In this document: one piece after another, positions 5,771-33,682 of the stretch
Layout of the letters: every line of letters starts with the position of its first letter
Position numbering within the stretch: position 1 is the stretch's first letter
Source of the DNA: an uncultured Alphaproteobacteria bacterium
Lineage (GTDB): Bacteria; Pseudomonadota; Alphaproteobacteria; Methylaequorales; Methylaequoraceae
DNA length: 64,000 nt
Assembly: GCA_902540805.1 (NCBI GenBank)
Contig: CACBON010000002.1
Coordinates: 27,322 to 91,321 of the forward strand
Direction of reading: 5' to 3'
The notes under the pieces: generated by a model
Databases searched by the model: none
The model's input: the letters and a program-made list of their open reading frames with translations, nothing else
Told to the model about the DNA's origin: nothing
Position numbers and translations under genes: made by a program

Positions 5771-6043
5771 ATGCATAGCACGAAGAACATTATTAAATTC
5801 CCAAATTTAATAAACCAAAAGAAAGAAAAAATGGTTAAAATTAGAGATGAAATTGAAAAAATTTTAACCAACTATGCCATTAATGAGAGAGATTTATGGG
5901 CTGTTTCACTTGCTGCTGGAAGATTTGCTTCAATCAATCTTGAAAAGTTGGATGGTGAAAAGCAGACAATTAATTTTTTTAAAAATTGTATTGAAACTCA
6001 AAAAAAGTTTGAACTAACCAGAAATCCTTCCAACATTCCCTGA
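5771..6043 (+). CDS. hypothetical small protein (possibly starting at the internal ATG at 5831)
   Basis: ORF only. The 3' end overlaps the convergent bactofilin gene by 30 nt. Confidence 0.2.
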   Translation: MHSTKNIIKFPNLINQKKEKMVKIRDEIEKILTNYAINERDLWAVSLAAGRFASINLEKLDGEKQTINFFKNCIETQKKFELTRNPSNIP

Positions 6044-6331
6044 AATTTGAGCTCCAGTATCAACGGAAAGCGAATTTGTTTTTAATTTACCGTCAATTAC
6101 ACCACTGTTAGAGACTTCTAGAAGGTCAGCTGTAATATCTCCATCAACCTTTCCCTCTACTTTTAAGTGTTCTGCATTTATGTTTCCATTGAAAAGTGCT
6201 GTGGATTCAATAATTACAGATCTAGCAACGATATTCCCTTTAAAATTTCCCGCTATAACAACTTGTCCTTCTTTCGACTCTAATTGTCCTTCCATGAGAA
6301 GACTTTTATTAATATAGGTTATATCACTCAT
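6014..6331 (-). CDS. bactofilin family protein (paralog 3)
   Basis: Beta-helical bactofilin (DUF583) periodicity: VIAGNFKGNIVARSVIIESTALFNGNINAEHLKVEGKVDGDITAD... Confidence 0.7.
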   Translation of the reverse strand: MSDITYINKSLLMEGQLESKEGQVVIAGNFKGNIVARSVIIESTALFNGNINAEHLKVEGKVDGDITADLLEVSNSGVIDGKLKTNSLSVDTGAQISGNVGRISG

Positions 6332-6333
6332 CT

Positions 6334-6687
6334 TTAATCCTCAGCGTGTTTATTATTTTTTAACTTATTTTCATCCCAGTTATGGATGATCTTACAGTTG
6401 AGTGCTGCACCTCTATCCATCTGAAGTGATTTATAATTAATTTCTCCAGTAATTACAGAAGAATCTGTAAGCCAAACAGAATCAGCTTTAATTTTACCTT
6501 GATAGTTTCCAGAAATTACAACTAACTCAGATATTATTGACCCTTCTAGTGAAGCATATCTTCCAAGTGTTACCTTATCAGATTTAATATCTGCTTCGAC
6601 TCTTCCATTAATTTCTATAGTTGATGCATTAGATATTTTGCCTTTAAATATCGCTCCTCTTCCTATGATTGATTGATTATCTGCCAT
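6334..6687 (-). CDS. bactofilin family protein (paralog 2)
   Basis: IGRGAIFKGKISNASTIEINGRVEADIKSDKVTLGRYASLEGSI... is a typical CcmA/BacA-like repeat pattern. Confidence 0.75.
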   Translation of the reverse strand: MADNQSIIGRGAIFKGKISNASTIEINGRVEADIKSDKVTLGRYASLEGSIISELVVISGNYQGKIKADSVWLTDSSVITGEINYKSLQMDRGAALNCKIIHNWDENKLKNNKHAED

Positions 6688-6689: not shown

Positions 6690-7112
6690 TTAAATACCTT
6701 TAGATTTTTTTGATGGTTTTTTTCTTTTTTCTTTCTCTAAACTTTTGTCTTCTATTCTTTTATCTAATCCACGGAAAAGCTGAATCTCTAAATTAGCACC
6801 TGGTCTTGCACTTAAACTATTGTAATACATATTACCTTTTATGTTAGCTGCAGATTCTATAGCTAATGATTCAGCAGTAACATCGCCCTCAAATTTACCT
6901 CCAATTATACATTCGAAAGCTTTTATATTACCTTTCTGATTTCCTTCAGCAGAAATATGAACATGTTCACATTCTATATTACCTTTAACAATTCCTTTAA
7001 GCACTAACTTTCCACTACATTTTATGTTACCGTTAATTTGCATTTCAGTACCAATTACACTAGAGGAAGTCGATGCTTTTTTTGGAGTTTTATCTGAGTT
7101 TCTAGAAAACAT
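6690..7112 (-). CDS. bactofilin family protein (paralog 1) with K-rich C-terminal tail
   Basis: MQINGNIKCSGKLVLKGIVKGNIECEHVHISAEGNQKGNIKAFECIIGGKFEGDVTAESLAIESAANIKGNMYY is the bactofilin repeat core. Confidence 0.75.
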   Translation of the reverse strand: MFSRNSDKTPKKASTSSSVIGTEMQINGNIKCSGKLVLKGIVKGNIECEHVHISAEGNQKGNIKAFECIIGGKFEGDVTAESLAIESAANIKGNMYYNSLSARPGANLEIQLFRGLDKRIEDKSLEKEKRKKPSKKSKGI

Positions 7113-7815: not shown

Positions 7816-9195
7816 ATGGAAAATTTATCTAAAAAATTTTCTATGAATGTGCTTAAATTTAACATTCTGAAAAATCTAAAATCAAGTACAAGATTTGGCG
7901 AAACTAGTATCTTTTCCAAAAACTTAACTGTATTTTCAAAAAACCTTAGACTCATTCTCAAAGAAAGAAGATTTCTTTATTTTACAAAAAAAGGCCCCAT
8001 AGAAGTTGTATTCAACATTAAACATTATCTGTCAGCTATTGCAATTTTTCTGGTTTTAATCTTCAAAGTATTTCAACTTTTATTCTTTGGTGTTTCGTCT
8101 TTTTTTTCTTATATGATTTACAAAAATACAGTTATAAATGAGCAGAGCTTTACAGAATCCGAAATTAAAACGTTAAAAAGTATTGCAAAAGGTAAAAATA
8201 TATCGGAGCAAGAAATTAATTCTGAAAAAGCAGAAATAGTAATAAAACAAAAAGATGAATTTAACAACACAAATAATTATCAAAATGAATTACAAGATCA
8301 ATTAAGAGAAAAATTATTAAATTTAAAAAGTATGATGCGAAATATAAAGCTTAGCCTCCCAAATGACTTGAATTATTCAGATGAAATTAAATTTGAGCAA
8401 TTTTCTAAAATTGCGAGTCCTGAAATGGTTGCAATAGAACACGCCTTCGAAAACAAGTTTGATTTAACAAAACCATCAAAAGACCAAAAGGAATCATTTT
8501 CATATAAGAAACTGCCTGTTATACCGTTTGTTGCACCAAGAACAAAAAAACTGAAAATAATTAATTTTACTAAGAAAATTGATATTGAAATTTTACAACT
8601 TTTAAGTGTTTTTGAACAATTAAAACTTCAACCAGATAAACTTGATATTCATAGGATAAACGCCTTGCTTTCTGAAAATATAAATGTAAGTGAAGATAAC
8701 GAGGATTTGTTGGATCATACTTCGCTAAGGTTTCAAATCTTGCAAGATCTTAAAGATGCAATTATTTATGTGCCTTTAAAACCACCTATGCAATATTACT
8801 ATGTCTCTAGTCCCTACGGTGTCAGAGTTCATCCTAAAAGCAAAAGAAAACAAATGCATCATGGAATTGATATGGCTGGTACTTGGCAAGAAGAGGTTAG
8901 GGCACCTGCTGATGGATATGTTTCTTTTTCAGGAAGAAATGGGTCTTTTGGTAAAACAATCAAAATAATACATAAACATGGTGTGTCAACATTGTATGGA
9001 CATCTTCATCGATTGAATGTGAAAAAAGGAAAGAATGTTACAGAGGGCGAAGTAATTGGAAAAATGGGATCAACAGGAAGAGCTGTAGGTGCGCATCTTC
9101 ATTATGAAATAAAAGTCAATGGTAAATCAGTAAATCCATATGATTTTATTTCAGTGGGACGTGATCTGCTAAGCAGTTCAATAATTAAAAAATAA
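7816..9195 (+). CDS. M23/LytM family metallo-endopeptidase (membrane anchored, coiled-coil middle)
   Basis: C-terminal HHGIDMAG...GRAVGAHLHYEI carries the HxxxD and HxH motifs of peptidase M23. One N-terminal TM helix. Confidence 0.75.
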   Translation: MENLSKKFSMNVLKFNILKNLKSSTRFGETSIFSKNLTVFSKNLRLILKERRFLYFTKKGPIEVVFNIKHYLSAIAIFLVLIFKVFQLLFFGVSSFFSYMIYKNTVINEQSFTESEIKTLKSIAKGKNISEQEINSEKAEIVIKQKDEFNNTNNYQNELQDQLREKLLNLKSMMRNIKLSLPNDLNYSDEIKFEQFSKIASPEMVAIEHAFENKFDLTKPSKDQKESFSYKKLPVIPFVAPRTKKLKIINFTKKIDIEILQLLSVFEQLKLQPDKLDIHRINALLSENINVSEDNEDLLDHTSLRFQILQDLKDAIIYVPLKPPMQYYYVSSPYGVRVHPKSKRKQMHHGIDMAGTWQEEVRAPADGYVSFSGRNGSFGKTIKIIHKHGVSTLYGHLHRLNVKKGKNVTEGEVIGKMGSTGRAVGAHLHYEIKVNGKSVNPYDFISVGRDLLSSSIIKK

Positions 9196-9220: not shown

Positions 9221-9231
9221 GAATAAAATGC

Positions 9232-9834
9232 ATGAGATTATTTTTGGCCGTTTTATTATGCTTTTTAATATTTACATTTCTTGAATCAAAAGAATTAGAT
9301 AATTGTAACTATTTAACTGAAAAGTACGGAAAAATTTATAATCTTCCCAATAAATTATTAACTTCTATCGCACTTGTAGAATCTGGGATCAAAAAGAACG
9401 AATTTAAATCATGGCCATGGACACTAAATGTTTCTGGAAAATCAATGTATTTTGATAATAAATTAGAAACCTTAGAATATTTAAAAAGTAATATAAGATT
9501 AAAAAAAAGTATCGACGTCGGTTGCATGCAAATTAATACAAGATACCACTTGAAAAATTTTAAAGATTTGTCTCATTTAGTCGAGCCCGAAGAAAATGTT
9601 AAGTATGCTGCAATTTATCTTCGTAAACTTTATAATAAACATAAATCGTGGAACGAAGCGGTTTCAAGATATCATTCATCAATTCCAAAACGAAAGAAAA
9701 ATTATCTTAAAAAAGTTCATACATATTGGAATGATTTAAGACAACAGAAAATAGTTATTAATAATTATACCAGCCATGATGAAGCAGAAAAAATAAAATT
9801 TTTTAGAGAAATACTAAATAAAGAAAATATTTAA
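9232..9834 (+). CDS. lytic transglycosylase (SLT domain) with signal peptide
   Basis: SIALVESGIKKNE (catalytic ES), VGCMQIN and AAIYLRKLY motifs of family-1 SLT domains. N-terminal signal peptide. Confidence 0.65.
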   Translation: MRLFLAVLLCFLIFTFLESKELDNCNYLTEKYGKIYNLPNKLLTSIALVESGIKKNEFKSWPWTLNVSGKSMYFDNKLETLEYLKSNIRLKKSIDVGCMQINTRYHLKNFKDLSHLVEPEENVKYAAIYLRKLYNKHKSWNEAVSRYHSSIPKRKKNYLKKVHTYWNDLRQQKIVINNYTSHDEAEKIKFFREILNKENI

Positions 9835-9839
9835 GATTT

Positions 9840-9855: not shown

Positions 9856-9865
9856 GACATATTGT

Positions 9866-10051
9866 ATGAAAGGAAAAATAATGAATAAATACATAAGATC
9901 ACGAGAAATTAAAGATAATATTATTAATTCTAATCCAGTTATTAAAATTACTCATTTTGACAATAATAAATGTGTTAAAACTGATGTTTACCCAATTTCA
10001 CATTTCTTGGATAAAACTTCTAGAGAAATAAAAGCTCTAGTATATTCCTAA
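9866..10051 (+). CDS. small basic protein (61 aa, or 56 aa from ATG 9881 which has an AAAGGA RBS)
   Basis: ORF directly downstream of a sigma-54 motif. The track ORF starts at TTG 9839, inside the promoter motif. No recognisable domain. Confidence 0.3.
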   Translation: MKGKIMNKYIRSREIKDNIINSNPVIKITHFDNNKCVKTDVYPISHFLDKTSREIKALVYS

Positions 10052-10148: not shown

Positions 10149-11609
10149 CTACATATTCATACTTTGAATTTTCATAATTTTTCTTCTAACTGAGGAGGCT
10201 GGTATATTGAGTAACTCCCTGTATTTTGCTACTGTTCTTCTAGCTAAATCAATTCCTTCATCTTGGAGTTTTTCTACTAACATTTCGTCACTCAATGGAC
10301 TGTGTACTGGTTCACTACTAATTAATTTTTTTAGAGATTCTCTTACTGATTCTGCTGAATGAGTTTCACCTTTCTTAGTACTACTTATAGAGGCACTAAA
10401 AAATAGTTTCATTTCAAAAACACCTCTTGGTGTTAGCATCAATTTATCTGATGTAACTCTACTGACTGTGCTTTCATGCATATTTATTTTTTTTGCTACA
10501 TCCTTAAGAACCATTGGTTTAAGATACTTTTTTCCCTTTTCAAAAAATTCCTTTTGTTGGTTAACAATTTCTGAGCTTATTTTCAGTGTTGTTACATTTC
10601 TTTGTTGAATTGCTTTGAGTAACCATCTTGCAGAATTTAAAGATTCATTAATAAACTTTTTATCTGATTCTCCACACTGAAGTCTCTCTATTTCTTTCAC
10701 GTAATCTTCGTTAATATTAATTTTTGGAAGTGTGCTATGATTTAATTCCACAGCCCAGTCAGAATTATTTTTTGTTACAATTACATCTGGATGAAAAATA
10801 TTGTCATTATCTATAGAATACTTACTCCCAGGTTTTGGGTTTAGAGCTCTTATAAGCCTTATTTCTTCTTTCAGTTTTTCCTCTGTTAATCCTGTAAGTT
10901 TTTGGAGACCTTTAATATTTCCACTTCCAAGTAGTTCAATATTATCAATAAGAATCTCTTTTTTTGAATCACAGTTGTTTTCGTTTATAAGTTGAATTTT
11001 TAGGCACTCTTTCAAATTTCTAGCAAATACACCATTAGGCTCAAAAGATTGCATTCTTTCTAGAACTTTTTCAATTTTATTTAATTTAAATCCACTAAAC
11101 TCTTCGATAGTTTCCAATTTTTCTGTAATCCAACCATTTTCATCAATGTAATCAATTAATATTTTTGCAATATTCTTATCTTCATCATCCTCAAATTCAA
11201 GATCTGCTTGATTATTCAAAATGGATTTTAAAGAAACTTTGTTGCTAAGTGTTTGTTCAATTACACTTCCAACGTCAACACTTTCCGTTGATGAATGCCT
11301 ACTGTTAAATTCAAAAGTCGCATCGCAATCCCACCTATTTTCAAAATCATTATTATGGGGTTCATCTGCAATAGATTCGCCATTTTTGAAAGATTCGTCT
11401 AATTCATCAGTTTTTTCTATGTCTTGATTTTCTTTATTATCTAGTTCTTCGCTCTCATTTTCCAAAAATGGATTCTCTTCCATCTCTTTATTCACTAAAT
11501 TTGTTAATTCTAAATTATTTAGCTGAAGCAATTTAATTGCTTGTTGTAACTGAGGAGTCATAACTAAAGATTGACTCTGTTTTAATTTAAGATTCTGTGA
11601 AATTTGCAT
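10149..11609 (-). CDS. rpoN: RNA polymerase sigma-54 factor
   Basis: Region I is Q/L-rich (MTPQLQQAIKLLQLNNLEL). C-terminal RpoN box ARRTVAKYRE. Confidence 0.85.
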   Translation of the reverse strand: MQISQNLKLKQSQSLVMTPQLQQAIKLLQLNNLELTNLVNKEMEENPFLENESEELDNKENQDIEKTDELDESFKNGESIADEPHNNDFENRWDCDATFEFNSRHSSTESVDVGSVIEQTLSNKVSLKSILNNQADLEFEDDEDKNIAKILIDYIDENGWITEKLETIEEFSGFKLNKIEKVLERMQSFEPNGVFARNLKECLKIQLINENNCDSKKEILIDNIELLGSGNIKGLQKLTGLTEEKLKEEIRLIRALNPKPGSKYSIDNDNIFHPDVIVTKNNSDWAVELNHSTLPKININEDYVKEIERLQCGESDKKFINESLNSARWLLKAIQQRNVTTLKISSEIVNQQKEFFEKGKKYLKPMVLKDVAKKINMHESTVSRVTSDKLMLTPRGVFEMKLFFSASISSTKKGETHSAESVRESLKKLISSEPVHSPLSDEMLVEKLQDEGIDLARRTVAKYRELLNIPASSVRRKIMKIQSMNM

Positions 11610-11668: not shown

Positions 11669-11708
11669 TTGACACTTCAACTAAGTCAGATACTTGACAC
11701 CCTTGACT
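11669..11708. repeat. three direct TTGAC(A/T)C repeats in the rpoN / 11751 intergenic region
   Basis: TTGACAC at 11669 and 11694, and TTGACT at 11703. They could be sigma-70 -35 boxes or a regulator site. Confidence 0.25.
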
Positions 11709-11750: not shown

Positions 11751-12377
11751 ATGCTGGCTAATTTGAGTAAATATTCTATTATTACCCTAATGATAAAAGT
11801 TTTACCATTGTTGCTTATTCCAACGCTTTTTTTAGTATTTTTTTTGAATGTTGAAAATCTGACAGTTAAATTAGATAGTAAATTCAAATTTGAACAAATT
11901 TCTAAAACTAACGAAAATGAAGGTTTTCAGATTAAAAAAGATGAAGAAAAAACAATTTCAAATGAAAATCTAGATAAAAACAATGAAACAGAATTAGATA
12001 ATTCTTCAAAAGATTCTGGACCTATATTGTTAAAAGGGAACGAATCTAAATCAAAAACGGATTTAAATGATACCAAGAATAATCAGACAACTAATAAAAT
12101 TCCAGAAATTAAATCTAAACCCACGGTGATAGTTAGTGATAGTTTTTTAAAAATTCAATTTGGTGCTTTTTCGAAATTAAAGAATGCTGAAATACAAAAA
12201 CTAAAAATTCTTAAATTAATGTCCCAGAAGTTTCCAGATTTTGAGAAAAACTTTAGAATTTTGGAAGAAAATAATTTGTTCAAACTTATTTATAAAGCTG
12301 AGAATTCCTCAAGTGGTGAATTAATATGTAATTATTCAAAATCTATAAGAATTAACTGTTTAATTTTAAAAAGATGA
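11751..12377 (+). CDS. SPOR-like domain protein with N-terminal membrane anchor
   Basis: C-terminal LKIQFGAFSKLKNAEIQKLKI...LFKLIYKAE resembles the SPOR fold pattern (xVQxGAF...A...L). Confidence 0.35.
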   Translation: MLANLSKYSIITLMIKVLPLLLIPTLFLVFFLNVENLTVKLDSKFKFEQISKTNENEGFQIKKDEEKTISNENLDKNNETELDNSSKDSGPILLKGNESKSKTDLNDTKNNQTTNKIPEIKSKPTVIVSDSFLKIQFGAFSKLKNAEIQKLKILKLMSQKFPDFEKNFRILEENNLFKLIYKAENSSSGELICNYSKSIRINCLILKR

Positions 12378-13096: not shown

Positions 13097-13112
13097 TGGT
13101 ATTAAAGTTGCA
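13097..13112 (+). promoter_or_regulatory. sigma-54 promoter candidate for motAB, inside a 28-bp palindrome
   Basis: TGGTAT-TAAAG-TTGCA. It sits in the inverted repeat tggtat...atacca (13097-13124), 51 nt upstream of ATG 13163. Confidence 0.45.
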
Positions 13113-16056: not shown

Positions 16057-16656
16057 TCACTCGTATTCAAGTTCTTCGTTTTTATATTTTTCAAAATATT
16101 CGTTACCAAGAATTTCTTTTATCTTCTCAATTGTAAGATCGTTAACTTTAGACGAGTATAACTCGTGCATTTCAGAACATTTTCTAGAAACTGCGTTTGC
16201 AACCCCTTGAGATATAAAATCATTTTCAAGTGCTGTTCTTGCTCTTGTGGTTGCCTCTGATTTAGCCTTTGTAAGCCTAGCTAAACCTGAATTTTTTTTT
16301 CTATTTAAATCGTCGACAACTTCCATCAGTTGTTTATAGCCTGGTTCTGGTAGGTCAATGTTAATGAATTGCCCATCAACTTCGTAATTAAACTCTACTT
16401 CGTCAATTTTTTCAGTTAAAAGGGGAATATGATCTGTATTAAATACTAAGATTTGCACTACATTTTCATTTTCTGTTTTTTTTATATCTCCTACATCAAC
16501 TAATCTTCTTGGCTTACCCTGAATGTTGATCCGGATACCTTTTAGTGTACTTAAGTTTGCATCTGCTGATTTTATTTCTTGAATTACTTCTGTATAATCT
16601 TCAATTGCTGCTTTCATTAAAGTTTCTGCTTGTATTGTATATTTATCTGCAACCAT
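16057..16656 (-). CDS. ribosome-recycling-factor-like protein (divergent paralog)
   Basis: By eye the hydrophobic/charge pattern tracks RRF: LKGIRINIQGKPRRLVDV vs LDGIVVEYYGTPTPLRQLA; ILVFNTDHIPLLTEKI vs INVFDRSMSPAVEKAI; INIDLPEP vs IRVPLPPLTEE. Roughly 20% identity at most. Confidence 0.35.
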   Translation of the reverse strand: MVADKYTIQAETLMKAAIEDYTEVIQEIKSADANLSTLKGIRINIQGKPRRLVDVGDIKKTENENVVQILVFNTDHIPLLTEKIDEVEFNYEVDGQFINIDLPEPGYKQLMEVVDDLNRKKNSGLARLTKAKSEATTRARTALENDFISQGVANAVSRKCSEMHELYSSKVNDLTIEKIKEILGNEYFEKYKNEELEYE

Positions 16657-17473: not shown

Positions 17474-18199
17474 TTACGGGAAAGTTATACTTTCTTTTTG
17501 ATCAGTTATTTCTTTAACTAATTGCTTGTTTTGGCTGGAAATCGCTTCAAGTGCCGCATTCAATGATGATGTGCTATTAGAAAGTTCTTTAAGAAGTTTT
17601 ACGTTCTGGTTCTTTTTATTATCTTTCAATAGTTTTCCAATCTCTTTGTTAACACTTGCAGATGTAACAACTCCTGACTCTTGAATTGACTTATTCAGCT
17701 TATCAGCTTCATTTTTAATTGATTTAGAAAGCCCTGATGATAAATTTGTAATTTCTTTTGATAAATTAACCATTAGTTTTTTATCATTCGAATTAATTGC
17801 ACTTGAAAGCTCTTCAATTTTAACTTTCATCTCTTCACTGGCATTTAATAAATCAGTATGTCTAGCTAAACTTTGATTCATGTTATCTACTGCTTTATTA
17901 ACATTTTCGACATTTTCAGCAAAAACAACCAAAGCTTCTCTACTAGTGCTTGTCATGTCTTCTAGTTCAGAAAGTGACTTAAAATATAGAAGTCCAGTTA
18001 AAAGAATTGCTACAATAGCAGTGGCAATTGAACTTGAAAAAATGATTGTTGTATATTTGTGAATTTCTTTCATTTTTTGCTCCGTCTTTAAGTATTCGTT
18101 TTTAATTCTTTTGTATTCTGAAGTCACATCGGTGGCTGCGTCAGCAGCATCCAAAGCTATTTTAATGCTTTCCTGCATTGCATTAAGTTGTTGAGTCAT
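17474..18199 (-). CDS. single-pass membrane coiled-coil protein
   Basis: One TM helix (residues about 50-72) followed by about 170 aa of S/N/K/L heptad-like sequence. No MCP signalling core. Confidence 0.3.
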   Translation of the reverse strand: MTQQLNAMQESIKIALDAADAATDVTSEYKRIKNEYLKTEQKMKEIHKYTTIIFSSSIATAIVAILLTGLLYFKSLSELEDMTSTSREALVVFAENVENVNKAVDNMNQSLARHTDLLNASEEMKVKIEELSSAINSNDKKLMVNLSKEITNLSSGLSKSIKNEADKLNKSIQESGVVTSASVNKEIGKLLKDNKKNQNVKLLKELSNSTSSLNAALEAISSQNKQLVKEITDQKESITFP

Positions 18200-18396
18200 G
18201 CAATTCTTCCTTTATTTAGTATTTTAACACTTTTTTGTTTTTTTTGAAATAGTGCACAATCTGTGCCAGAAACTTTCTTTATTTCTAAATATGGGTTATT
18301 TTTTGAAATTATACCAAATGCTTTACAACCATATGGAAAGTTTTTCTTATAGGTCACATAAAAATGCGAGCAGTTATTACAGTTATTTTGATTCAT
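18196..18396 (-). CDS. small Cys4 (putative zinc-ribbon) protein
   Basis: CNNC ... C(24) ... C(47) spacing. Overlaps its neighbours by 4 nt on each side. Confidence 0.3.
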   Translation of the reverse strand: MNQNNCNNCSHFYVTYKKNFPYGCKAFGIISKNNPYLEIKKVSGTDCALFQKKQKSVKILNKGRIA

Positions 18397-21961: not shown

Positions 21962-21977
21962 TGCAAAAACCTTGCCG
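21962..21977 (-). promoter_or_regulatory. sigma-54 promoter candidate for fliO-P-Q-R-flhB and the downstream unknown genes
   Basis: Minus strand reads CGGCAA-GGTTT-TTGCA. The -12 C is 12 nt upstream of about 21951. The RBS-equipped ATG is at 21928. Confidence 0.5.
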
Positions 21978-22055
21978 AAACAACAGTAGTCACTTTAAAT
22001 AGCTGATTTAATTGATAAATTATTCATTAAAAAAAAGATGTCAATTTGCTGACAA

Positions 22056-25452: not shown

Positions 25453-25468
25453 CTGCAATTATAATGCC
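25453..25468 (-). promoter_or_regulatory. sigma-54 promoter (consensus-like) for fliK-L-M-N
   Basis: Minus strand reads TGGCAT-TATAA-TTGCA in the 43-nt fliJ-fliK gap. The RBS AAGGGG and ATG 25429 follow. Confidence 0.6.
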
Positions 25469-25472
25469 ACTA

Positions 25473-25886
25473 TTAAAGAGAAACTGAATTTTTAGGTTTG
25501 AAATAATTTTCTTTTTTTAATTCTTTTACTTTATCTTCTTGAATTTTAATAAATTTCTTTTTTTCATTTATTTTTTCTTTTTGTTTTTCAATTTTTACTA
25601 TTTCTTTTAGATTATGACTAATTTCGTCTAAAACATGATTTTCCCTATTTTTTGAAACCTCAAGTTTATTTATTAAATTGCTGGTAAAAGAAGCTCTAAA
25701 TTTTAAATCTGAACCTGAAAGTTCACCAGATTCCTCTACGGCGCTTTGATTTAACATTTCATTCAACGTTTCTTTTACAAAATCTAACCTTTTTTTTTCA
25801 TCATTTAGTGTAGATAAATTGTTAAGTAGTTTATTTTTCTTTAATTTTTTGAGAGTTAAAAAAATATCATATTTATTTTTTTTCAT
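25473..25886 (-). CDS. fliJ: FliJ-like coiled-coil export chaperone
   Basis: 137-aa charged coiled-coil protein immediately downstream of fliI. Confidence 0.45.
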   Translation of the reverse strand: MKKNKYDIFLTLKKLKKNKLLNNLSTLNDEKKRLDFVKETLNEMLNQSAVEESGELSGSDLKFRASFTSNLINKLEVSKNRENHVLDEISHNLKEIVKIEKQKEKINEKKKFIKIQEDKVKELKKENYFKPKNSVSL

Positions 25887-25890
25887 GTCA

Positions 25891-27210
25891 TCAGTTAATC
25901 TTTTTCAAGCTTGTTATGCTGTCTTCAAAACTCGATTTTTTTTTAAAGTGTTGTTTTATATGACTGCAAATTTTATTCCAATTATTTAATGCACTATCAA
26001 TTTCAGGGTTTTGCCCTTGGGCATATCCCCCCATAAGAATTAGATCTTTGTTTTCTTGGTATATGGAGTATAATTTTTTTACTAAATCAGAATGATTTTG
26101 ATGTTCCTCGGTAACAATAGAATTCATTACTCTACTTAATGATTGATTCAAATCAATTGCAGGAAAAATTCCAAGTTGTGCAAGTTCTCTAGATAATACA
26201 ATATGTCCATCTAATATTGCCCTGGCAGTGTCTACTACAGGATCGTTCGTATCATCAGAATCTGCCAGTATTGTATAGAAACTTGTTATAGTTCCTTCAT
26301 TTGTTGAACCGGCTCCAGTTCTTTCGATTAGATTTGGAATCATTGAAATTACAGATGTTGGGTATCCTTTTGAAGTAGGTTGTTCACCAAGTGCCAACCC
26401 CACCTCTCGTTTAGCATGTGCTATTCTGGTAAGAGAGTCCATAATAAGCAAAACGTTTTTTCCTTTAGACCTAAAATATTCTGCAATTGAAGTTGCTCTT
26501 TCTGCTCCTTTAATTCTTAATAATGGCGATTTGTCTGCTGGCACGGCTACAGTGACAGTTCTTTTTCTTGATTCGTCATTCAATATTTCTGATACAAAAT
26601 TTCCTAACTCTCTTCCTCTTTCTCCGATGAGTGCTACAACAACAACATCAGCGTCAGTAAACTTAGTCATCATTCCAAGTAAAATAGATTTTCCAACTCC
26701 AGAACCTGCAATGATTCCAAGCCTTTGCCCCCTTCCTACAGTAAAAAGTGAATTGATCGCTCTAATACCAACATCTAGCACTTCATTTATTGGTTTTTTT
26801 GACATTGGGTTATCGGGTTTTCCATTAATTGGCCATGTTTCTGAAGAATCATTTATTTTTGCCCCTCCATCTATTGGATTCCCAAAAGCATCTAAAACCC
26901 TTCCAAGTAAATGAGAACCCACAATTACATCATTTGATGAATTTAAGACTCTTATTTCAGACCCCAAAATTATGTTTGCATTATTTTCATGAACGGCAAT
27001 AATATTTTTATTTTCTTTGAAACCAATGATTTCTCCCGTGACTATAGATTTGTCATTACATTCTATTTCACATGTTGTCCCGATTGGTGCGGGAAATGCT
27101 TCACATTCGACAACTTTACCGTCATATTTTGATGTTTTACTCTTATAGATCCTGTTTTGAGATATAGTATGTGAATCTACAGTCTGAAGTATTTTTTTTG
27201 CTATAACCAT
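25891..27210 (-). CDS. fliI: flagellum-specific ATPase FliI
   Basis: Walker A motif GSGVGKS. F1/T3SS ATPase family core. Confidence 0.9.
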   Translation of the reverse strand: MVIAKKILQTVDSHTISQNRIYKSKTSKYDGKVVECEAFPAPIGTTCEIECNDKSIVTGEIIGFKENKNIIAVHENNANIILGSEIRVLNSSNDVIVGSHLLGRVLDAFGNPIDGGAKINDSSETWPINGKPDNPMSKKPINEVLDVGIRAINSLFTVGRGQRLGIIAGSGVGKSILLGMMTKFTDADVVVVALIGERGRELGNFVSEILNDESRKRTVTVAVPADKSPLLRIKGAERATSIAEYFRSKGKNVLLIMDSLTRIAHAKREVGLALGEQPTSKGYPTSVISMIPNLIERTGAGSTNEGTITSFYTILADSDDTNDPVVDTARAILDGHIVLSRELAQLGIFPAIDLNQSLSRVMNSIVTEEHQNHSDLVKKLYSIYQENKDLILMGGYAQGQNPEIDSALNNWNKICSHIKQHFKKKSSFEDSITSLKKIN

Positions 27211-27234
27211 TTACATTTAATTCTAAATAGAAGT

Positions 27235-28101
27235 TTATTTTTGAGAACTTAATTTGGCATCTTCAAGATCTTTCTCAATTTCATCAGGTATTGAAAATTT
27301 AATTTTTTTAGAAACAATATCACTCATCTCTATTGATCCTGATTTTATTCTCATATCACCTCGTTCAAGTTTTGCATCTTGATTGATTTCAAATGACAAA
27401 CTTAAATTATTTTTACTGTTGTAAACCTTTATAGCTTCAAAATCTTTTGGATTTAAAAAAACTACAATATTTTCAATTGAGTTTTCAATTGAATTAACAA
27501 CTTGCTTAATTTTTTCTTGAAAGAATTTATTGTTATTATCTATCTCGTAACCTAAAACTTCTTTTGATAAATTTGAAAGTAAATTAGTTATTGATTTGTT
27601 TAATTCATTAACAAATTCTGGTGTCATTTTAAAAATATTATCAGTTGTATTTTTAAGAGTCACAGCAAGTGACTTTTCTCCTTTTTGAAGCTCTTCGGTA
27701 GTTTTTTTTACTCCAAGTTTATAACCATTATTGTAATATTGTTTTGCCATATCATTGGCTAATTTTTGTGCTTCTTTTTCTGTATATATTTTTTCATTGT
27801 CTGGTTTTTTTTCATCGATAACATCACTTGTTGGTTCCTTGTCTTTACTTTCAGAAACCTCATTTAAATCTTTTGTTACTTCTTCTTTTTTTTCAGATGT
27901 TATTTCTTGATTTTTTTGTGCAAGGGATAACGGAGTAACTTTTTTAAACAAATTTGTGATGTTAGAAGTGATATCTGACTCTTTTACGAAGTCTTTGTTA
28001 CTTTTATTTAATAAACTAACAATTTCTTCAGTGCTTAGTGCTCCAGAAATTTTTTCATCACTTTTTTCCTGAGCTTCGGTTTTGTCTGTGAGTGGCATCA
28101 T
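27235..28101 (-). CDS. fliH: flagellar assembly protein FliH-like
   Basis: Charged K/E-rich protein between fliG and fliI. Overlaps fliG by 4 nt. Confidence 0.5.
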   Translation of the reverse strand: MMPLTDKTEAQEKSDEKISGALSTEEIVSLLNKSNKDFVKESDITSNITNLFKKVTPLSLAQKNQEITSEKKEEVTKDLNEVSESKDKEPTSDVIDEKKPDNEKIYTEKEAQKLANDMAKQYYNNGYKLGVKKTTEELQKGEKSLAVTLKNTTDNIFKMTPEFVNELNKSITNLLSNLSKEVLGYEIDNNNKFFQEKIKQVVNSIENSIENIVVFLNPKDFEAIKVYNSKNNLSLSFEINQDAKLERGDMRIKSGSIEMSDIVSKKIKFSIPDEIEKDLEDAKLSSQK

Positions 28102-29147
28102 ACGAAGTCATCTCCACCTCTTCCAGCAAGTACAATTGTTCCTTCGTCTGACATAGTTCTTGCTACATTGATGATGGCCTTCTGAGCCTCTTGAACTTCT
28201 GTAAGTCTCAATGGGCCAAGTACCTCCATTTCATCTCTGATGTTTGCCGAAGCTCTTTGAGACATGCACGAGAAAATCTTATCTTTCAATTCATCTTCTG
28301 TTCCTTTAAGCGCAATTATAAGAATTTCTTGATCAACATTTCTTAATAAAGTTTGCATGCTTCTATCATCCATTAAAATTAATGTATCAAAGGTAAACAT
28401 ACTTTCCTGAATTTCTTTAGCTAAATTTCTGTCCTTTTCACCTAACGTTTTCATGATTCTTTGTTCCATATTCTGCTTTGTAAAATTCATTATTGATGCA
28501 GCATCTTTTATTCCTCCGACTGATGAGGCTCGCAATGAAGTGTTTGTTTTAAATTTAAGTTGCATAACTCTTTCCAATTCTGCCAAAGCGTCTGGTTGAA
28601 CTGTTTCTAGAGTTGCAATACGATGAATAATATCAGATTGAGTTTCTTCGGGTAGCAAAGTTAAAACATCTGCTGCAACACCAGGCTCTAAATACGAAAT
28701 TATCAATGCCATTATTTGAGGATGTTCATCAGAAATTAACTCTGCAACTGATCTGGCATCCATCCAATCTAAAATTTCTATTGGCTTGTCACTTTCAGTA
28801 GGAGTAATTCTTCCAAGAACAGACTGAGCTTTATTTTCACCTAAAGCTTTTGTCATTACATTTCTAATGTAGTTTGTAGAACCCATACCCAAGTCAGTTT
28901 GTGTTTTTATTATGGCTAAAAATTCGTCTAAAACTCTATTCACAGTTTCTTGATCTAAACCTTGAACATTGTACATCTCTTTACCGAGTTGCTGCACTTC
29001 TTTTGGACCCAAATTTTTTAAAATTTCTGAAGCCTCTTCCTCGCCTAAAAGCATCATCAAAATAGCACATTTTTGAGTACTTGTTAATTGTTCATATTGC
29101 GACTTTTCTTCTTCTTCTTTATTTTCTTCCTTTGCTTTTTCAGCCAT
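28098..29147 (-). CDS. fliG: flagellar motor switch protein FliG
   Basis: Typical FliG N-terminal, middle and C-terminal domains (LTSTQKCAILMMLLGEEEASEILKNL...). Confidence 0.85.
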   Translation of the reverse strand: MAEKAKEENKEEEEKSQYEQLTSTQKCAILMMLLGEEEASEILKNLGPKEVQQLGKEMYNVQGLDQETVNRVLDEFLAIIKTQTDLGMGSTNYIRNVMTKALGENKAQSVLGRITPTESDKPIEILDWMDARSVAELISDEHPQIMALIISYLEPGVAADVLTLLPEETQSDIIHRIATLETVQPDALAELERVMQLKFKTNTSLRASSVGGIKDAASIMNFTKQNMEQRIMKTLGEKDRNLAKEIQESMFTFDTLILMDDRSMQTLLRNVDQEILIIALKGTEDELKDKIFSCMSQRASANIRDEMEVLGPLRLTEVQEAQKAIINVARTMSDEGTIVLAGRGGDDFV

Positions 29148-29171
29148 TTGAGTACTCCTTATTAATTTATA

Positions 29172-30896
29172 TTATACATCTTTTTTCATAAGTTGTCTGA
29201 ATACATTTGAAACTTTTCCAGCTTCATCTCCCACTATCATCCTGATAACAGCAACTTTATCGTCGTAAGTATTGGCCGTATCGAGCATATCTGCTGAAAT
29301 AGTTGATTTTTTTGGTTTAAGTTTAGCTTTTATGTCTTCAAGAGATTCGCCTTCTTGAACTTGAACTTCATCTTCTGCTTCTTCTGCCTCAAGATCAGCT
29401 TCAGAAGTACCACCTGGACCTGCAGCTGTTCCAGCTGAAGGAACTAAAATTCTATTTAACAATGGCTTTAATGCACCGAATGTTACGATTGCAAGAATTA
29501 GAACAGTCGATAACTGACCAACCATATTTTGAAACCATGATTGTTCATACCATTTAGTTGTTATAACATCCATTTCTTGGATAAAATCTCCACTTGTTAC
29601 AACAATTGTGTCTTCTCTATCCTCATTGAAACCAACTGCTTCTTTAACAAGAGAAGTAATTTTTTCTCTATCTTCTTCACTTATTGGCTCAGAGACAACT
29701 GTGCCTTCTGGAGTTTCAATCATTTTGTTTTTAACTAAAACAGCCGTCTTAACTTTCTTAATTTTTCCGATTTGACCAACAGTTGTACTAAGTTTTTTAC
29801 TAACCTCATAGTTTTTAACATTACTGGATGATCTTTGCTTGAATTCTGCTGGTTCCCCAGTTTCAGGAGCTGCAACCTGTAAATCAGCAGCTAGAGGTGC
29901 TTGGTTAGCTACAGCACCAGGAATACCTCTTGCCGGTCTATCAGTGGATTCGTCTTGACTATTTTGTTCACTTCTAGTCGAAATGCTCTCTGGATCAAAA
30001 ATTTCTTCTGTTGTTTGATTGCTTGTAAAATCCATTTCAACATTTACTTGTGCCGTTAAATTACCTGCACCAACGATTGGAGAAACTAATGATAAAATTC
30101 TTTCTCTGTATATTGATTCAATTTTTACTCTATGAGCTAACTGTTTTTCTGTCATTGCTAAATTTGGGTCATCTTCTGGTTTCGACAATAACGAACCATA
30201 TTGATCCACAACTGTTACGTTATCGGAAGTCATATTAGGAATTGATGATGATACTATATGAACAATTGATCTAATTTGCTCTAATCCTAAAGCTCTTCCA
30301 TCAGCTAGTTTCACAAATACAGATGCAGTGGGAGGAGAGGAGTCTCTGACAAAAACAGATTTTTCAGGAATTGCTAGATGTACTCTTGCTCCAATAATAT
30401 TAGCTATTTCATTTATCGATCTGGCAAGCTCTATTTCTTGCGTCTGTTTCATTTTCATAAATTCAACTGACCTACTTGTTCCCATTGGGATTTTTTCAAG
30501 AATATCATAACCTTGAGGAACTGAACTCGGCAAACCTTCTGCGGCAAGTTTCATCTTTGCTTCATAATATTCAGGCGACGGAACTAAAATTTCACCTGTA
30601 GTTCTGTCGATTGAAACATCAATTCCATTAGATCTTAAAACATCAATTACTCTGGATTTTTCATGTTCAGGTAAAGTTGCAAATAAAGTTGTTCTTGGGG
30701 GTTCTCTGAAAGATATAAAAAAAACTAAACCAAGAAAAATAACAAATAAAGTTATCATAACTGGAATAGATCTTTGAACAGCAGGTTCATTAGAAAATTT
30801 TTTAATTTTTTCTATGGAGTTAGTTATGTTTGACAACATTCCTTGATTTGATATTGAATTTTTTGTTATTTCAGTAGTTTGAATCTCTTCAGCCAT
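29172..30896 (-). CDS. fliF: flagellar MS-ring protein FliF
   Basis: 574 aa with two TM helices and a YscJ/FliF fold. Located between fliE and fliG. Confidence 0.85.
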   Translation of the reverse strand: MAEEIQTTEITKNSISNQGMLSNITNSIEKIKKFSNEPAVQRSIPVMITLFVIFLGLVFFISFREPPRTTLFATLPEHEKSRVIDVLRSNGIDVSIDRTTGEILVPSPEYYEAKMKLAAEGLPSSVPQGYDILEKIPMGTSRSVEFMKMKQTQEIELARSINEIANIIGARVHLAIPEKSVFVRDSSPPTASVFVKLADGRALGLEQIRSIVHIVSSSIPNMTSDNVTVVDQYGSLLSKPEDDPNLAMTEKQLAHRVKIESIYRERILSLVSPIVGAGNLTAQVNVEMDFTSNQTTEEIFDPESISTRSEQNSQDESTDRPARGIPGAVANQAPLAADLQVAAPETGEPAEFKQRSSSNVKNYEVSKKLSTTVGQIGKIKKVKTAVLVKNKMIETPEGTVVSEPISEEDREKITSLVKEAVGFNEDREDTIVVTSGDFIQEMDVITTKWYEQSWFQNMVGQLSTVLILAIVTFGALKPLLNRILVPSAGTAAGPGGTSEADLEAEEAEDEVQVQEGESLEDIKAKLKPKKSTISADMLDTANTYDDKVAVIRMIVGDEAGKVSNVFRQLMKKDV

Positions 30897-30913
30897 AATT
30901 TTTTCCTTTTAAT

Positions 30914-31252
30914 TTAAACAGGCATATTCATAATGTCTTTGTATGCACTCAGGACTTTATTTCTTACGTTCAAAGTCATTTGAAAACCCAGACTTGATAA
31001 TTGTTGTTGAATCATAACCTTGGTAAGATCGTTTTCTAATCCAAGTTCAAAGTTTTTTGTTAACTCAGCACTTTGTTTTTGAGTATCAGAAACTTCTTGA
31101 ATAGCTGATTTAATACTATCCAAAAAACCACCATCTTGTGGTTCCATAATTTTTGGAGACAGATTTGCAATATCCTCTTGAACTTTTTTTATTTCATTTT
31201 GATTGTTTGGTGTAATAACTGTTGGTTTTAAATTAGTAAGGTTTGGTTTCAT
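30914..31252 (-). CDS. fliE: flagellar hook-basal body protein FliE
   Basis: The C-terminal ...VLSAYKDIMNMPV matches the FliE C-terminal motif (AYQEIMRMQV). Confidence 0.75.
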   Translation of the reverse strand: MKPNLTNLKPTVITPNNQNEIKKVQEDIANLSPKIMEPQDGGFLDSIKSAIQEVSDTQKQSAELTKNFELGLENDLTKVMIQQQLSSLGFQMTLNVRNKVLSAYKDIMNMPV

Positions 31253-31268: not shown

Positions 31269-32426
31269 TTAAGCTTGCATCAATTTTTTTTCTGACAAAT
31301 TTTCTTGAATGTTATTATAAAAATTACTTTCTTTCGAAACATCTATCATTATGTCTTTATCTTCAATTATATTTCTTTCAGAGAGAACTATAGCTCTTTG
31401 CAGAACATTTTCCAACTCTCTAACATTTCCGGGCCAACTATACTCTCTTAATATTTTTTGAGCATCTTTGTTGATGTAAGGTAGGGCGCTTTTTTCTGTG
31501 TGTCTATTCAATAAAGCTATACTAATTGGCAAAATATCATCAGGTCTTTCAGATAAATTATGTGTTTCTATTGGGAACACATTAAGTCTGTAATATAAAT
31601 CCTCTCTGAATTTTTTATCTTTTACTTCGTTTAACATATCTCTATTAGTTGTTGCAATTACTCGAACATTAACATCAATATCTCGTTGTCCGCCAATCGG
31701 TGTAACTTTTTTTTCTTGGAGAACTCTAAGAAGCTTAGCTTGAAGGGACAAAGGCATTTCAGATACTTCATCAAGAAGTAATGTTCCATTATCAGCAGCT
31801 CGAAAAATTCCTTTATTCGCAGAGGAAGCTCCTGTAAAAGCTCCTTTTTCATGTCCAAATAACATTGCTTCAAGCATATTTTCTGGTATCGCAGCACAAT
31901 TTATTGCAATAAAAGGTTTTTCATGTCTATCCGACTTTTTATGAATAAGATTGGAAATAACTTCTTTTCCAGTTCCAGTCGGTCCATGAATAAACACTGT
32001 AACATCTGTTTTTGAAACCTTTTCAACCATATTAATTAAAGAAAGTGTTTTCTTATCTGAGAAACTATACTTTTCCTTAGATATAATCTGAAAAATAATT
32101 TCTTTTATAACCTCATCCATAATCTGGAAAGAAATTTGAATATAAGCTCCGCCCATTTCTTTTTTTAAGTCATAACTACTATCATTTTCTGAATCCAAAA
32201 CTATTAATTTTGTAGAACCTATATTTCTAGCAATTTTAAGAATGTTTGATTGACCACCTTGTTGGTTTTCGAATTTTTTATCGATAATCAATGTGGATTG
32301 AGAACTTTTAATTTCACTGATCTCATCAGAATCAATTAATTTGATTTCCTTTCCTTTTTTACTAAAAAAATCATTTATATCATTGTGTACTTCAAAACAA
32401 TCTTTAATAATAAATATTTCCTTCAT
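31269..32426 (-). CDS. sigma-54-dependent activator lacking a DNA-binding domain (FlgR/FleT-like); start set to ATG 32426
   Basis: Degenerate receiver-like N-terminus. AAA+ core with GPTGTGKE and GAFTGA. About 40 aa follow GNVREL and contain no Fis-type HTH. The track ORF starts at TTG 32453. Confidence 0.8.
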   Translation of the reverse strand: MKEIFIIKDCFEVHNDINDFFSKKGKEIKLIDSDEISEIKSSQSTLIIDKKFENQQGGQSNILKIARNIGSTKLIVLDSENDSSYDLKKEMGGAYIQISFQIMDEVIKEIIFQIISKEKYSFSDKKTLSLINMVEKVSKTDVTVFIHGPTGTGKEVISNLIHKKSDRHEKPFIAINCAAIPENMLEAMLFGHEKGAFTGASSANKGIFRAADNGTLLLDEVSEMPLSLQAKLLRVLQEKKVTPIGGQRDIDVNVRVIATTNRDMLNEVKDKKFREDLYYRLNVFPIETHNLSERPDDILPISIALLNRHTEKSALPYINKDAQKILREYSWPGNVRELENVLQRAIVLSERNIIEDKDIMIDVSKESNFYNNIQENLSEKKLMQA

Positions 32427-32459
32427 ACTTAAATCCTTTATTTTCGTTTTCAATCTAAA

Positions 32460-32475
32460 AGCAAAAATATTGCCA
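32460..32475 (-). promoter_or_regulatory. sigma-54 promoter candidate driving the EBP-fliE-F-G-H-I-J operon
   Basis: Minus strand reads TGGCAA-TATTT-TTGCT. The -12 C is about 12 nt upstream of 32449. RBS AAAGGA precedes ATG 32426. Confidence 0.55.
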
Positions 32476-32617
32476 AATAAGAAAACGAATTTTTACAAAA
32501 TTAATTTTAAATAGTAATATCAACTACTTAGAAATTTTTTTTTTTTTTAATTTTTTTTAAAATTTGCTTATTGTCAGTTTTCTGACATTATTTTATTTAT
32601 AAATAAGTTAATTTATT

Positions 32618-33682
32618 ATGTCTGAGATCATCAAAGGAAAATGTGAGGCAACTTTACAATTAAAAAAACTTGTAGAGATGGTTGCAAAATCAAATTCAAC
32701 AGTTTTACTTAGAGGTGAGACTGGGTGTGGTAAAGATGTGGTTGCCAGAGCTATTCATGAATCATCAAAAAGAAACGGTGAATTAATTAATGTTAATTGT
32801 GCAGCAATACCGTCTGAGCTTTTAGAATCTGAATTATTTGGTCACGAAAAAGGAGCATTTACTGGTGCAGATTCAAAAAGAGAAGGAAGATTCGAGGCTT
32901 CCAATAATGGCACCTTGTTTCTAGATGAAATAGGTGACATGCCTATGGCACTTCAGGCTAAATTACTCAGAGCGATTGAAACTAGAAAAATTCAACGAGT
33001 TGGAGGAAGAAAAGAGATTGATCTTAATTTAAGGCTTATTTGTGCTACTCACCAAGACATTGAAAAAAAAATTGATGAGGGTAATTTTAGGGCTGATCTA
33101 TTTTTTCGGATCAACGTATTTCCAATTGAAATTCCATCACTCGCAGAGAGAAAGGAGGATATTCCAATTCTTGTTAATCATATCTTAGAGGATTTAAAAT
33201 ACAGTGGATCTATTATTCCTCAAATTGATAATTCGGGAATAAAAGCGCTTCAAGAATATTTATGGCCAGGTAATGTAAGAGAATTAAAAAATGTTATTGA
33301 GAGGGCAGCAATAATCTTCCCAGAAAAAAGTATTAATGGCAAAAACATTAAAGAAAATTTGTTAAAAGTTAATTTACCTGACAACTCTCAAGAAAAAGAG
33401 GAGTTATGGGAAATGACTTCTGATCTTTCTCCAATAAAAATCGAAACGAGTTCTGATTCTCATTCAATGCCACACCCAAATCATTATAAAAAATGGTTTG
33501 ATTTCTTAGACAAGATAGATCTTCGTAGACATTTAAGTGATGTTGAATTTAACTTAATAGAAGGAGCACTAAAGAAAAGTAACGGATCTGTGACCGAGGC
33601 TTCGAAATGTTTAAAAATAAACAGAACGACTTTAATTGAAAAAATGAAAAAATACTCTATTCCTAAGCTCGGAAATGACTAA
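32618..33682 (+). CDS. sigma-54-dependent activator with C-terminal Fis-type HTH and no regulatory N-domain
   Basis: Starts directly with the AAA+ domain ([20 protein letters not shown]). C-terminal HTH ([29 protein letters not shown]). Confidence 0.8.

Follow-up and report, generated by a model that had tools for sequence, protein, structure and literature searches.

What is encoded by two divergent open reading frames (ORFs) that each look like an incomplete activator of sigma-54-dependent transcription, that hold a single DNA-binding domain between them, and one of which heads an operon of flagellar genes? We asked this of positions 31269-33682 in a stretch of 64,000 nucleotides (hereafter the window; contig CACBON010000002.1, GC content of ~29%) from an uncultured marine alphaproteobacterium. 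From our analysis of the two genes, their relatives and the 191 bp that separate them, it is quite likely that the locus is a master switch of the FleQ/FleT kind, with two activators, in a flagellar cluster of fla1 (gammaproteobacterial-style) type. Such a system is already known from Fla1 of Rhodobacter (Cereibacter) sphaeroides (Poggio et al. 2005; Pena-Sanchez et al. 2009; both in the form summarised in PMC7277832, PMC11999139 and PMC9542535), and the locus adds another member of the FleQ/FleT type.

Two activators with complementary truncations

Both genes encode enhancer-binding proteins (EBPs) with an AAA+ core, and their features are as follows.

31269..32426, minus strand: fleT-like gene, 385 aa, sigma-54 activator without a DNA-binding domain (assigned by Pfam, homologue lengths and identity with FleT)
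32079..32426, minus strand: N-terminal domain of the FleT-like protein, ~116 residues, alternating beta/alpha, receiver- or FleQ-domain-like (AlphaFold 2 and Foldseek)
31566..32057, minus strand: AAA+ sigma-54 interaction domain of the FleT-like protein (PF00158 Sigma54_activat, E 3.2e-69)
31326..31550, minus strand: AAA+ lid of the FleT-like protein (PF25601 AAA_lid_14, E 2.7e-16)
32618..33682, plus strand: fleQ-like gene, 354 aa, sigma-54 activator without an N-terminal domain (Pfam)
32636-33130, plus strand: AAA+ domain of the FleQ-like protein, with GAFTGA at 32852-32869 (Pfam)
33146-33382, plus strand: lid of the FleQ-like protein (Pfam)
33533-33655, plus strand: Fis-type helix-turn-helix (HTH) of the FleQ-like protein (Pfam)

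The FleT-like protein carries Walker A (GPTGTGKE), Walker B (LLLDE) and GAFTGA (residues 195-200, 31827-31844) motifs, and only ~20 residues lie C-terminal of its lid; the HTH is likewise missing from all its homologues. In our Pfam scan of the protein, neither HTH_8 nor Response_reg was found even at E<=1, which agrees with a preliminary description of the locus, made from the sequence without database searches, in which the minus-strand EBP was read as an AAA+ protein with GAFTGA and without an HTH. The mechanical ORF starts at TTG 32453; the architecture stands, and the start is corrected to ATG 32426 (with AAGGA upstream), a shift of 9 codons. All full-length homologues are of ~385 aa and have their start at the place of ATG 32426, and TTG 32453 lies 7 nt from the GC element of the promoter described below, upstream of any plausible transcription start. 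No NCBIfam equivalog cut-off was reached by the protein, and an identity as FlbD was rejected (NF050807 scored 294 bits against a cut-off of 750, aligned from residue ~102 on, and the protein has no HTH). The C-terminus of the FleT family is a short conserved tail, ending in ...LMQA in the marine clade and in ...LxxAV in Rhodobacterales.

In the FleQ-like protein, Sigma54_activat begins at residue 7 and is followed by AAA_lid_14 and HTH_8 (residues 306-346, E 2e-11). The AAA+ domain begins 6 residues after the protein start and the N-terminal FleQ domain (PF06490-type) is absent. An in-frame TAA stands 9 nt upstream of ATG 32618 and an N-terminal extension is therefore impossible, so no sensory domain is gained by moving the start. 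Homologues, at least 120 among the matches listed, are 353-360 aa long with the same domains and 70-96% identity, and the earlier view of this EBP, as a protein that starts at its AAA+ core, ends in a Fis-type HTH and has no N-domain, is borne out. Both EBPs retain the Walker A, Walker B, GAFTGA and arginine-finger (arginine-rich) motifs, and the GAFTGA loop and ATPase motifs are intact across the whole FleT-like family.

Relatives of the two proteins

Searches against all PDB sequences served as an outgroup control for both EBPs. The closest solved sequence to the FleT-like protein is FlrC of Vibrio cholerae (4qhs, E 2.6e-80, 273 bits), ahead of NtrC1 (241 bits) and FleQ (211 bits), and the closest to the FleQ-like protein is FleQ of Pseudomonas aeruginosa (8p53, residues 150-485 through the HTH, E 1.8e-83, 283 bits), with which it shares an identical recognition helix, RTTLxEKMxKY. 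In our scan of relatives (one genome per GTDB species), the nearest relatives of the FleT-like protein (63-95% identity) came from uncultured marine single-amplified genomes (SAGs) and metagenome-assembled genomes (MAGs) labelled Alphaproteobacteria, 'Pelagibacteraceae TMED13' or 'Rickettsiales'. The next-best matches, 43-55% identical over the full length including the N-domain, came from Rhodobacterales (among them Thalassovita, Thalassococcus, Rhodobacter sp. NSM, Cereibacter johrii, HTCC2083 and Planktotalea), where fleT is followed by fliE-fliF-fliG in the loci inspected. Gammaproteobacterial matches were 50-57% identical in the AAA+ core and are second EBPs at the FlrC/FleR position; FleT has been described as the FleR orthologue (bioRxiv 10.1101/2021.08.29.457346).

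The FleT-like protein is 51% identical (E 9e-122, residues 44-362) to P0242 (378 aa) of Cereibacter sphaeroides WS8N, the strain on which the published studies were done; P0242 came up when the Rhodobacter sp. NSM orthologue served as the query. P0242 (10001-11137 of locus L082) is followed by fliE-fliF-fliG-fliH-fliI-fliJ-fliK-fliL-fliM-fliN and has chemotaxis genes upstream; the window gene order is collinear with this locus, and the fleT operon of PMC7277832 and PMC11999139 is the one that P0242 heads. In a neighbour-joining tree of 237 AAA+/lid columns (200 bootstraps, numpy implementation), bootstrap support was 100% for marine with Rhodobacterales FleT, 100% for marine with Rhodobacterales FleQ-like proteins (N-domain-less) and 100% for the union of the FleQ-like clade with gammaproteobacterial first EBPs (FleQ/FlrA). 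The identity to FleT and the tree show that the FleT-like protein is homologous to FleT and does not just resemble it, and the preliminary proposal of a FleQ/FleT-like pair in which only one partner binds DNA is supported.

Using tblastn on all loci, we found the divergent FleQ-like partner at full length in every marine relative whose locus extends far enough, and also in four Rhodobacterales (L036, L040, L042 and L043); the FleQ-like ORF of HTCC2083 is of 372 aa, with only ~20 residues ahead of the AAA+ core. As judged by sequence, the FleQ-like protein is orthologous to the N-domain-less FleQ-like genes beside fleT in these four Rhodobacterales and nests with gammaproteobacterial FleQ/FlrA. 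Typical gammaproteobacteria carry tandem EBPs with a kinase-sized gap, the first with a FleQ domain, the second with a canonical receiver (REC), and both with an HTH. A group of Steroidobacteraceae-type gammaproteobacteria (L056, L059, L060, L064, L067, L069, L072 and L076) carries fleQ, a gap of 80-330 bp without a kinase gene and a tandem second EBP that is receiver-less, 324-373 aa long and keeps its HTH. We considered these loci as FleT-like and rejected them, since the short second EBP retains the HTH and is without the N-domain.

A conserved control module between the genes

The region between the two start codons holds the following elements.

32460-32475, minus strand: sigma-54 (-24/-12) promoter of fleT-fliEFGHIJ, TGGCAATATTTTTGCT, seen in the alignment as an invariant TGG...T.TTGCTT block
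32518-32530, plus strand: site resembling that of integration host factor (IHF), TATCAACTACTTA (WATCAANNNNTTR), flanked by an A-tract, between enhancer and promoter (from the consensus only)
32572-32587: perfect palindrome TGTCAGTTTTCTGACA (TGTCAG-N4-CTGACA), candidate FleQ box or upstream activating sequence, alignment block TGTCA-A..GACA
32492-32520, plus strand: weak sigma-70-like -35/-10 pair (TTTACA-17-TAATAT), possible promoter of the fleQ-like gene (consensus scan, low confidence)

We aligned the intergenic region with its counterparts (14 genomes, mean column identity 59%) and found three invariant blocks, namely the palindrome, the IHF-like site and the sigma-54 promoter. Motifs of the form TGGC-N8-TGC number 11 in the window against 1.8 expected, a count reached in 0 of 100 shuffles. 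The motif ahead of fleT, a textbook -24/-12 element that the preliminary description had pointed out at 32475-32460 before the gene without a DNA-binding domain, keeps its place in 27 related loci. The geometry of the window recurs in C. sphaeroides, where the sigma-54 motif TGGCACGATCCCTGC precedes the ATG of P0242 (of the long ORF) by 55 nt; this claim is confirmed. The second block (TAAgtnaTTGA / TAA....T(G)) makes 32518-32530 a candidate IHF site by its match to the consensus. A CtrA-type TTAA-N7-TTAA box was also looked for in the intergenic region, and no clean match was seen by eye.

With respect to the -24 TGG, the palindrome has its start 112 bp upstream; it lies 30 bp ahead of the fleQ-like ATG. 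In all relatives its start is 100-113 bp upstream of the promoter GG. In 21 related loci (275 kb in total) it is the sole exact TGTCA-N6-TGACA per locus, always at this position. PMC6120874 quotes GTCaNTAAAtTGAC as the consensus for P. aeruginosa FleQ, and the palindrome agrees with it in its core, GTCA-N6-TGAC, and in its A/T-rich spacer. For this core, 0.38 occurrences would be expected in the window and 3 are seen, each of them between genes of the flagellar region. Two of them accompany sigma-54 promoters, and the other promoter positions needed here are these.

22039-22054: second palindrome of FleQ-box type, TGTCAATTTGCTGACA, its start 77 bp ahead of the fliO-operon sigma-54 motif
21962-21977, minus strand: sigma-54 promoter variant CGGCAAGGTTTTTGCA (CGGCA-N7-TTGCA), ahead of the fliO-position ORF, fliP, fliR and flhB
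25455-25469, minus strand: sigma-54 promoter of fliK-fliL-fliM-fliN, conserved in L083-L085

In three further genomes with FleT identity of 71-79% (L083, L084 and L085), the second box recurs as the variants TGTCAACTAATTGACA, AGTCATTAATTTGACT and TGCCATAAATTTGACA, respectively, and the fliO-operon promoter is kept too. Upstream of the fliK promoter or of the other sigma-54 motifs (the fliO-operon variant apart), no FleQ-box palindrome was found within 220 bp. The third exact GTCA-N6-TGAC, GTCAGATACTTGAC at 11685-11698, lies in the 141-bp gap from rpoN (minus strand) to a 208-aa ORF (11751..12377); it overlaps several TTGACA-like hexamers and may be a -35 region and not a FleQ box.

A probable cascade from FleQ to FleT and its alternatives

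In C. sphaeroides, FleQ with RpoN2 switches on fleT-fliEFGHIJ, after which FleQ/FleT switches on class III (PMC7277832, PMC11999139); FleQ alone recognises and activates class II promoters, the FleQ/FleT complex recognises class III promoters, and FleT alone activates no flagellar promoter and needs FleQ (PMC11999139). By analogy, the FleQ-like protein of the window would probably be expressed from a sigma-70-type promoter, bind the box at 32572-32587 and, through looping assisted by IHF, turn on the sigma-54 promoter at 32460-32475 and with it fleT-fliE-F-G-H-I-J; it would probably also activate the box-bearing promoter of fliO-P-Q-R-flhB. The FleT-like protein, being HTH-less and so presumably unable to bind DNA, would join FleQ in mixed AAA+ rings, and these would redirect activation to the later sigma-54 promoters without a box (e.g., fliK-L-M-N). 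If the sigma-70-like promoter at 32492-32520 is real, the palindrome falls in the 5' leader of fleQ, which suggests autorepression, and because of this position of the box FleQ would probably damp its own expression. A split into box-bearing and box-less promoters would fit a dependence of the early parts (the membrane-supramembrane (MS) ring, FliG, the export ATPase and the export gate) on FleQ alone. Hetero-oligomers, promoter classes and autoregulation are the portions of this scheme that we infer; the sequences themselves show the domain architectures, the homology to the experimentally characterised FleT of C. sphaeroides, the make-up of the operon, and that promoter, IHF-like site and box are conserved. 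The preliminary description had offered either a cascade, in which the HTH-bearing EBP activates the other, or positive autoregulation; the cascade is favoured from the sequence over positive autoregulation by a protein without a DNA-binding domain, because a conserved FleQ-box palindrome lies at enhancer distance from the fleT promoter.

Several points weigh against this scheme and should be kept in view. Hetero-oligomerisation is carried over by analogy from C. sphaeroides at only 51% identity, and the likely orthology of the FleQ-like protein is drawn from other Rhodobacterales and gammaproteobacterial FleQ, not from C. sphaeroides FleQ. The fleT gene of C. sphaeroides has chemotaxis genes upstream, with no fleQ beside it or within 10 kb. 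The class II / class III split by box would be read from only three conserved promoters, and the sigma-70-like fleQ promoter does not exceed the shuffle expectation. On the plus strand, moreover, the palindrome is also scored as a terminator-like hairpin, though a weak one. A role of the palindrome as a weak RNA hairpin is compatible with the data; the second box of L084 is changed symmetrically at its two outer positions, which fits a hairpin or a dimer site alike.

The most serious alternative to mixed rings, which we nevertheless consider improbable, is a linear cascade without hetero-oligomers, in which the FleQ-like protein activates the FleT-like gene and the FleT-like protein then activates the later promoters alone from solution. 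This would be the logic of FlrA and FlrC in Vibrio minus the kinase, with solo action as in FlgR of Helicobacter pylori and CtcC of Chlamydia; solo-acting EBPs without a DNA-binding domain are indeed known (PMC3162934). The FleT-like protein retains all its ATPase and GAFTGA motifs, has FlrC as its closest solved relative and occupies the flrC/fleR position before fliE, and the later promoters are without a recognisable upstream box, all of which such a cascade would accommodate. Its homologue in C. sphaeroides, however, which is 51% identical and in the same clade at 100% bootstrap, activates no flagellar promoter alone and requires FleQ (PMC11999139). The N-domain is without phospho-acceptor residues, and no histidine kinase was found among the annotated window ORFs scanned, hence the usual on-switch of FlgR and FlrC is absent.

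A negative role of the FleT-like protein is far less probable still: it would poison or titrate FleQ rings and shut off class II, with no positive role later. That a box-bearing promoter drives fleT itself would make a natural negative-feedback loop, and formation of a FleQ/FleT complex could conceivably draw FleQ off class II promoters. A pure inhibitor would not, however, need the GAFTGA loop and ATPase motifs that are intact family-wide, and the later sigma-54 promoters without a box would still need an activator, with no third EBP found in the flagellar region. The chance that pseudogenes, wrongly called starts or faulty MAG or SAG assemblies account for the truncations is negligible, and this reading is refuted by the conservation data: the mechanical start on the minus strand was indeed wrong by 9 codons, but more than 100 cluster representatives of each protein share length and domains, the arrangement recurs in ~25 independent genomes, the in-frame stop precedes the fleQ-like ATG by 9 nt, and cultured Rhodobacterales share both architectures.

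The N-terminal domain of the FleT-like protein

Reviews present FleT as having neither an N-terminal domain nor an HTH (PMC3162934, PMC10084136), and both FleQ and FleT of R. sphaeroides as being without N-terminal regulatory domains (PMC9542535). In our alignments, the ~115 residues preceding the AAA+ domain align from the marine clade to Rhodobacterales FleT, C. sphaeroides included, with conserved positions M1, F11, R67 and G70 and an E(M/L)GG motif. A conserved FleT N-domain thus appears to have been overlooked in the reviews. We modelled residues 1-120 of the FleT-like protein with AlphaFold 2 (predicted local distance difference test (pLDDT) 82, predicted template-modelling (pTM) score 0.78) and obtained an alternating beta/alpha fold; this N-domain-only model, built with a deeper alignment, was used, the AAA+ region of the full-length model having a pLDDT of ~35. 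The top Foldseek match in the PDB is the FleQ domain of V. cholerae FlrA (8h5v, E 9e-3, template-modelling (TM) score 0.6), followed by receivers (PmrA, StyR, ArcA, FixJ and the CikA pseudo-receiver) and TIR at TM scores of 0.55-0.65; no match in the PDB reached E<=1e-3.

At the level of sequence, the receiver-like character is not seen. No Pfam family was found for the N-domain in any of 19 members, and hhalign gave it a probability of 3% against the FlrC REC and 0.4% against the FleQ domain, the positive control (REC against the FleQ domain) giving 97%. Searched against 1.84 billion representatives, a profile of the N-domain retrieved only 109 clusters; the longest are of no more than 396 aa, and canonical receivers are not among them. 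The window protein has an Asp where beta-3 ends; this residue is not conserved, relatives having H, N or S instead, and the acidic pair and conserved Lys of receivers are absent from the FleT N-domain alignment. The degenerate receiver-like N-terminus of the preliminary description is therefore supported by the fold (pLDDT 82, Foldseek TM ~0.6 at E ~1e-2) and not by the sequence. We would describe the domain as family-specific, non-phosphorylatable and, from its modelled fold and genomic position only, receiver-like, and fold and position would also suggest its descent from the FlrC receiver.

Tentatively, and with less confidence than we place in the FleQ/FleT assignment itself, one may go further and regard the ~115-residue pseudo-receiver as a relic of the FlrC/FleR receiver, bereft of phosphorylation chemistry and kinase, with a possible regulatory input, and the presence or absence of a FleQ box as defining two classes of sigma-54 promoter. 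If this is true, the N-domain could be an assembly-checkpoint or partner-binding module that times the switch from FleQ to FleQ/FleT, with FleQ alone acting at the box-bearing early promoters (fleT-fliE..J and fliO..flhB) and FleQ/FleT at the box-less later ones.

Gene surroundings

Behind the fleT-like gene, the remainder of its operon (25473..31252) and the sigma-54 gene of the window are placed as follows.

30914-31252, minus strand: fliE (Pfam)
29172-30896, minus strand: fliF (Pfam)
28098-29147, minus strand: fliG (Pfam)
27235-28101, minus strand: fliH (Pfam)
25891-27210, minus strand: fliI (Pfam)
25473-25886, minus strand: fliJ-position ORF, 137 aa (fliJ assigned by position only)
10149..11609, minus strand: rpoN, encoding sigma-54, inside the flagellar region (Pfam Sigma54_AID, Sigma54_CBD and Sigma54_DBD)

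The earlier proposal that the gene without a DNA-binding domain heads a fliE-fliJ operon is supported by the Pfam order of fliE to fliI, with fliJ resting on position. After the fliJ-position ORF come the sigma-54 motif at 25455-25469 and fliK-fliL-fliM-fliN, and then the fliO-position ORF, fliP, fliR and flhB. Further left lie motA, motB, rpoN, three bactofilins, an M23 peptidase and an SLT protein, several of them behind sigma-54 motifs; the right half of the window holds housekeeping genes.

The three bactofilin genes are in tandem on the minus strand (6014..6331, 6334..6687 and 6690..7112) directly behind a sigma-54 motif at 7125-7139, and a divergent sigma-54 motif at 7212-7226 stands ahead of a 180-aa ORF and the M23 peptidase (7816..9195). 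From this placement, the bactofilins appear to belong to the flagellar sigma-54 regulon. In the regions 9205-10051 and 17474-18268, more sigma-54 motifs lie ahead of the SLT-domain protein (9232..9834), a small ORF at ~9880-10051 and a 241-aa protein without a Pfam family (17474..18199). A GGTA-type motif at 13098-13111 stands ahead of motA. Between the motB-side genes and the sigma-54-driven 241-aa ORF, a 199-aa ORF (16057-16656) has a weak Pfam match of 47 bits to ribosome-recycling factor (RRF).

Comparison with known systems

Few sigma-54 activators are known to work as hetero-oligomers. FleQ/FleT is among them, and so far it has passed for a peculiarity of R. sphaeroides. Our analysis places the pair in many Rhodobacterales and in a marine alphaproteobacterial lineage that is abundant, uncultured and streamlined and has hundreds of variants in metagenomes. 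This distribution and the conserved FleT N-domain are modestly new, and the divergent layout with its compact conserved module of enhancer, IHF-like site and promoter and the Pseudomonas-type FleQ box are new as well. The 191-bp region could serve as a minimal model of how an AAA+ partner without a DNA-binding domain retargets one that binds DNA.

The closest system is that of C. sphaeroides. Its FleT, like that of the window, has an AAA+ domain with GAFTGA, no HTH and a ~115-aa N-terminal region, and heads fleT-fliEFGHIJ behind a sigma-54 promoter ~50 nt before the ATG; its FleQ likewise has AAA+ and HTH and no N-terminal regulatory domain, and rpoN is located with the flagellar genes in both. 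The two differ in that fleQ divergently adjoins fleT in the window and shares the 191-bp control region with it, whereas chemotaxis genes stand upstream of fleT in C. sphaeroides; the divergent layout is also found in Rhodobacterales HTCC2083, Planktotalea and Thalassobacter. The window further differs in its host, an uncultured marine lineage of ~29% GC, in having a clean FleQ-box palindrome as its enhancer, and in that its hetero-oligomer is predicted by analogy.

Other activators share single traits with the pair. HrpR/HrpS of Pseudomonas syringae and PspF are EBPs without N-terminal regulatory domains, as is the FleQ-like protein, and HrpR/HrpS are obligate hetero-hexamers (PMC10084136, PMC9542535); HrpR and HrpS, however, both keep the HTH, their regulon and that of PspF are those of type III secretion and phage shock, and their control in trans by HrpV or PspA has no counterpart identified in the window. 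FlgR of H. pylori and CtcC of Chlamydia are, like the FleT-like protein, sigma-54 activators without a C-terminal HTH, and FlgR is flagellar as well. They have a canonical phosphorylatable receiver and a partner kinase and act alone, whereas in the FleT-like N-domain neither an Asp nor a Lys is conserved, and the window ORFs scanned include no kinase gene. Like the FleT-like protein, the Caulobacter-type FlbD is a sigma-54 activator of flagellar genes and has a receiver-like N-domain that is not phosphorylated, but it has an HTH, and the cluster of the window is of the fla1/gamma type and not of the CtrA/FlbD type.

The same two EBP subfamilies as in the window form FleQ-FleS-FleR of Pseudomonas and FlrA-FlrB-FlrC of Vibrio, in which the second EBP gene also stands directly before fliE-fliF-fliG and the FleQ box is likewise GTCA-N6-TGAC. 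In those systems the EBP genes are in tandem with a kinase gene between them, whereas in the window they are divergent and the kinase gene is missing. Compared with Pseudomonas FleQ, the FleQ-like protein lacks the ~145-residue N-terminal FleQ domain, the alignment starting at FleQ residue 150, and compared with FlrC/FleR, the FleT-like protein lacks the HTH, a phosphorylatable receiver and an adjacent FlrB/FleS kinase. The correspondence of FleT to FlrC/FleR, and of a FleQ without its N-domain to FleQ/FlrA, suggests that a two-component cascade was simplified by loss, with the kinase, the phospho-receiver chemistry, one HTH and the FleQ domain as the parts that would have been lost.

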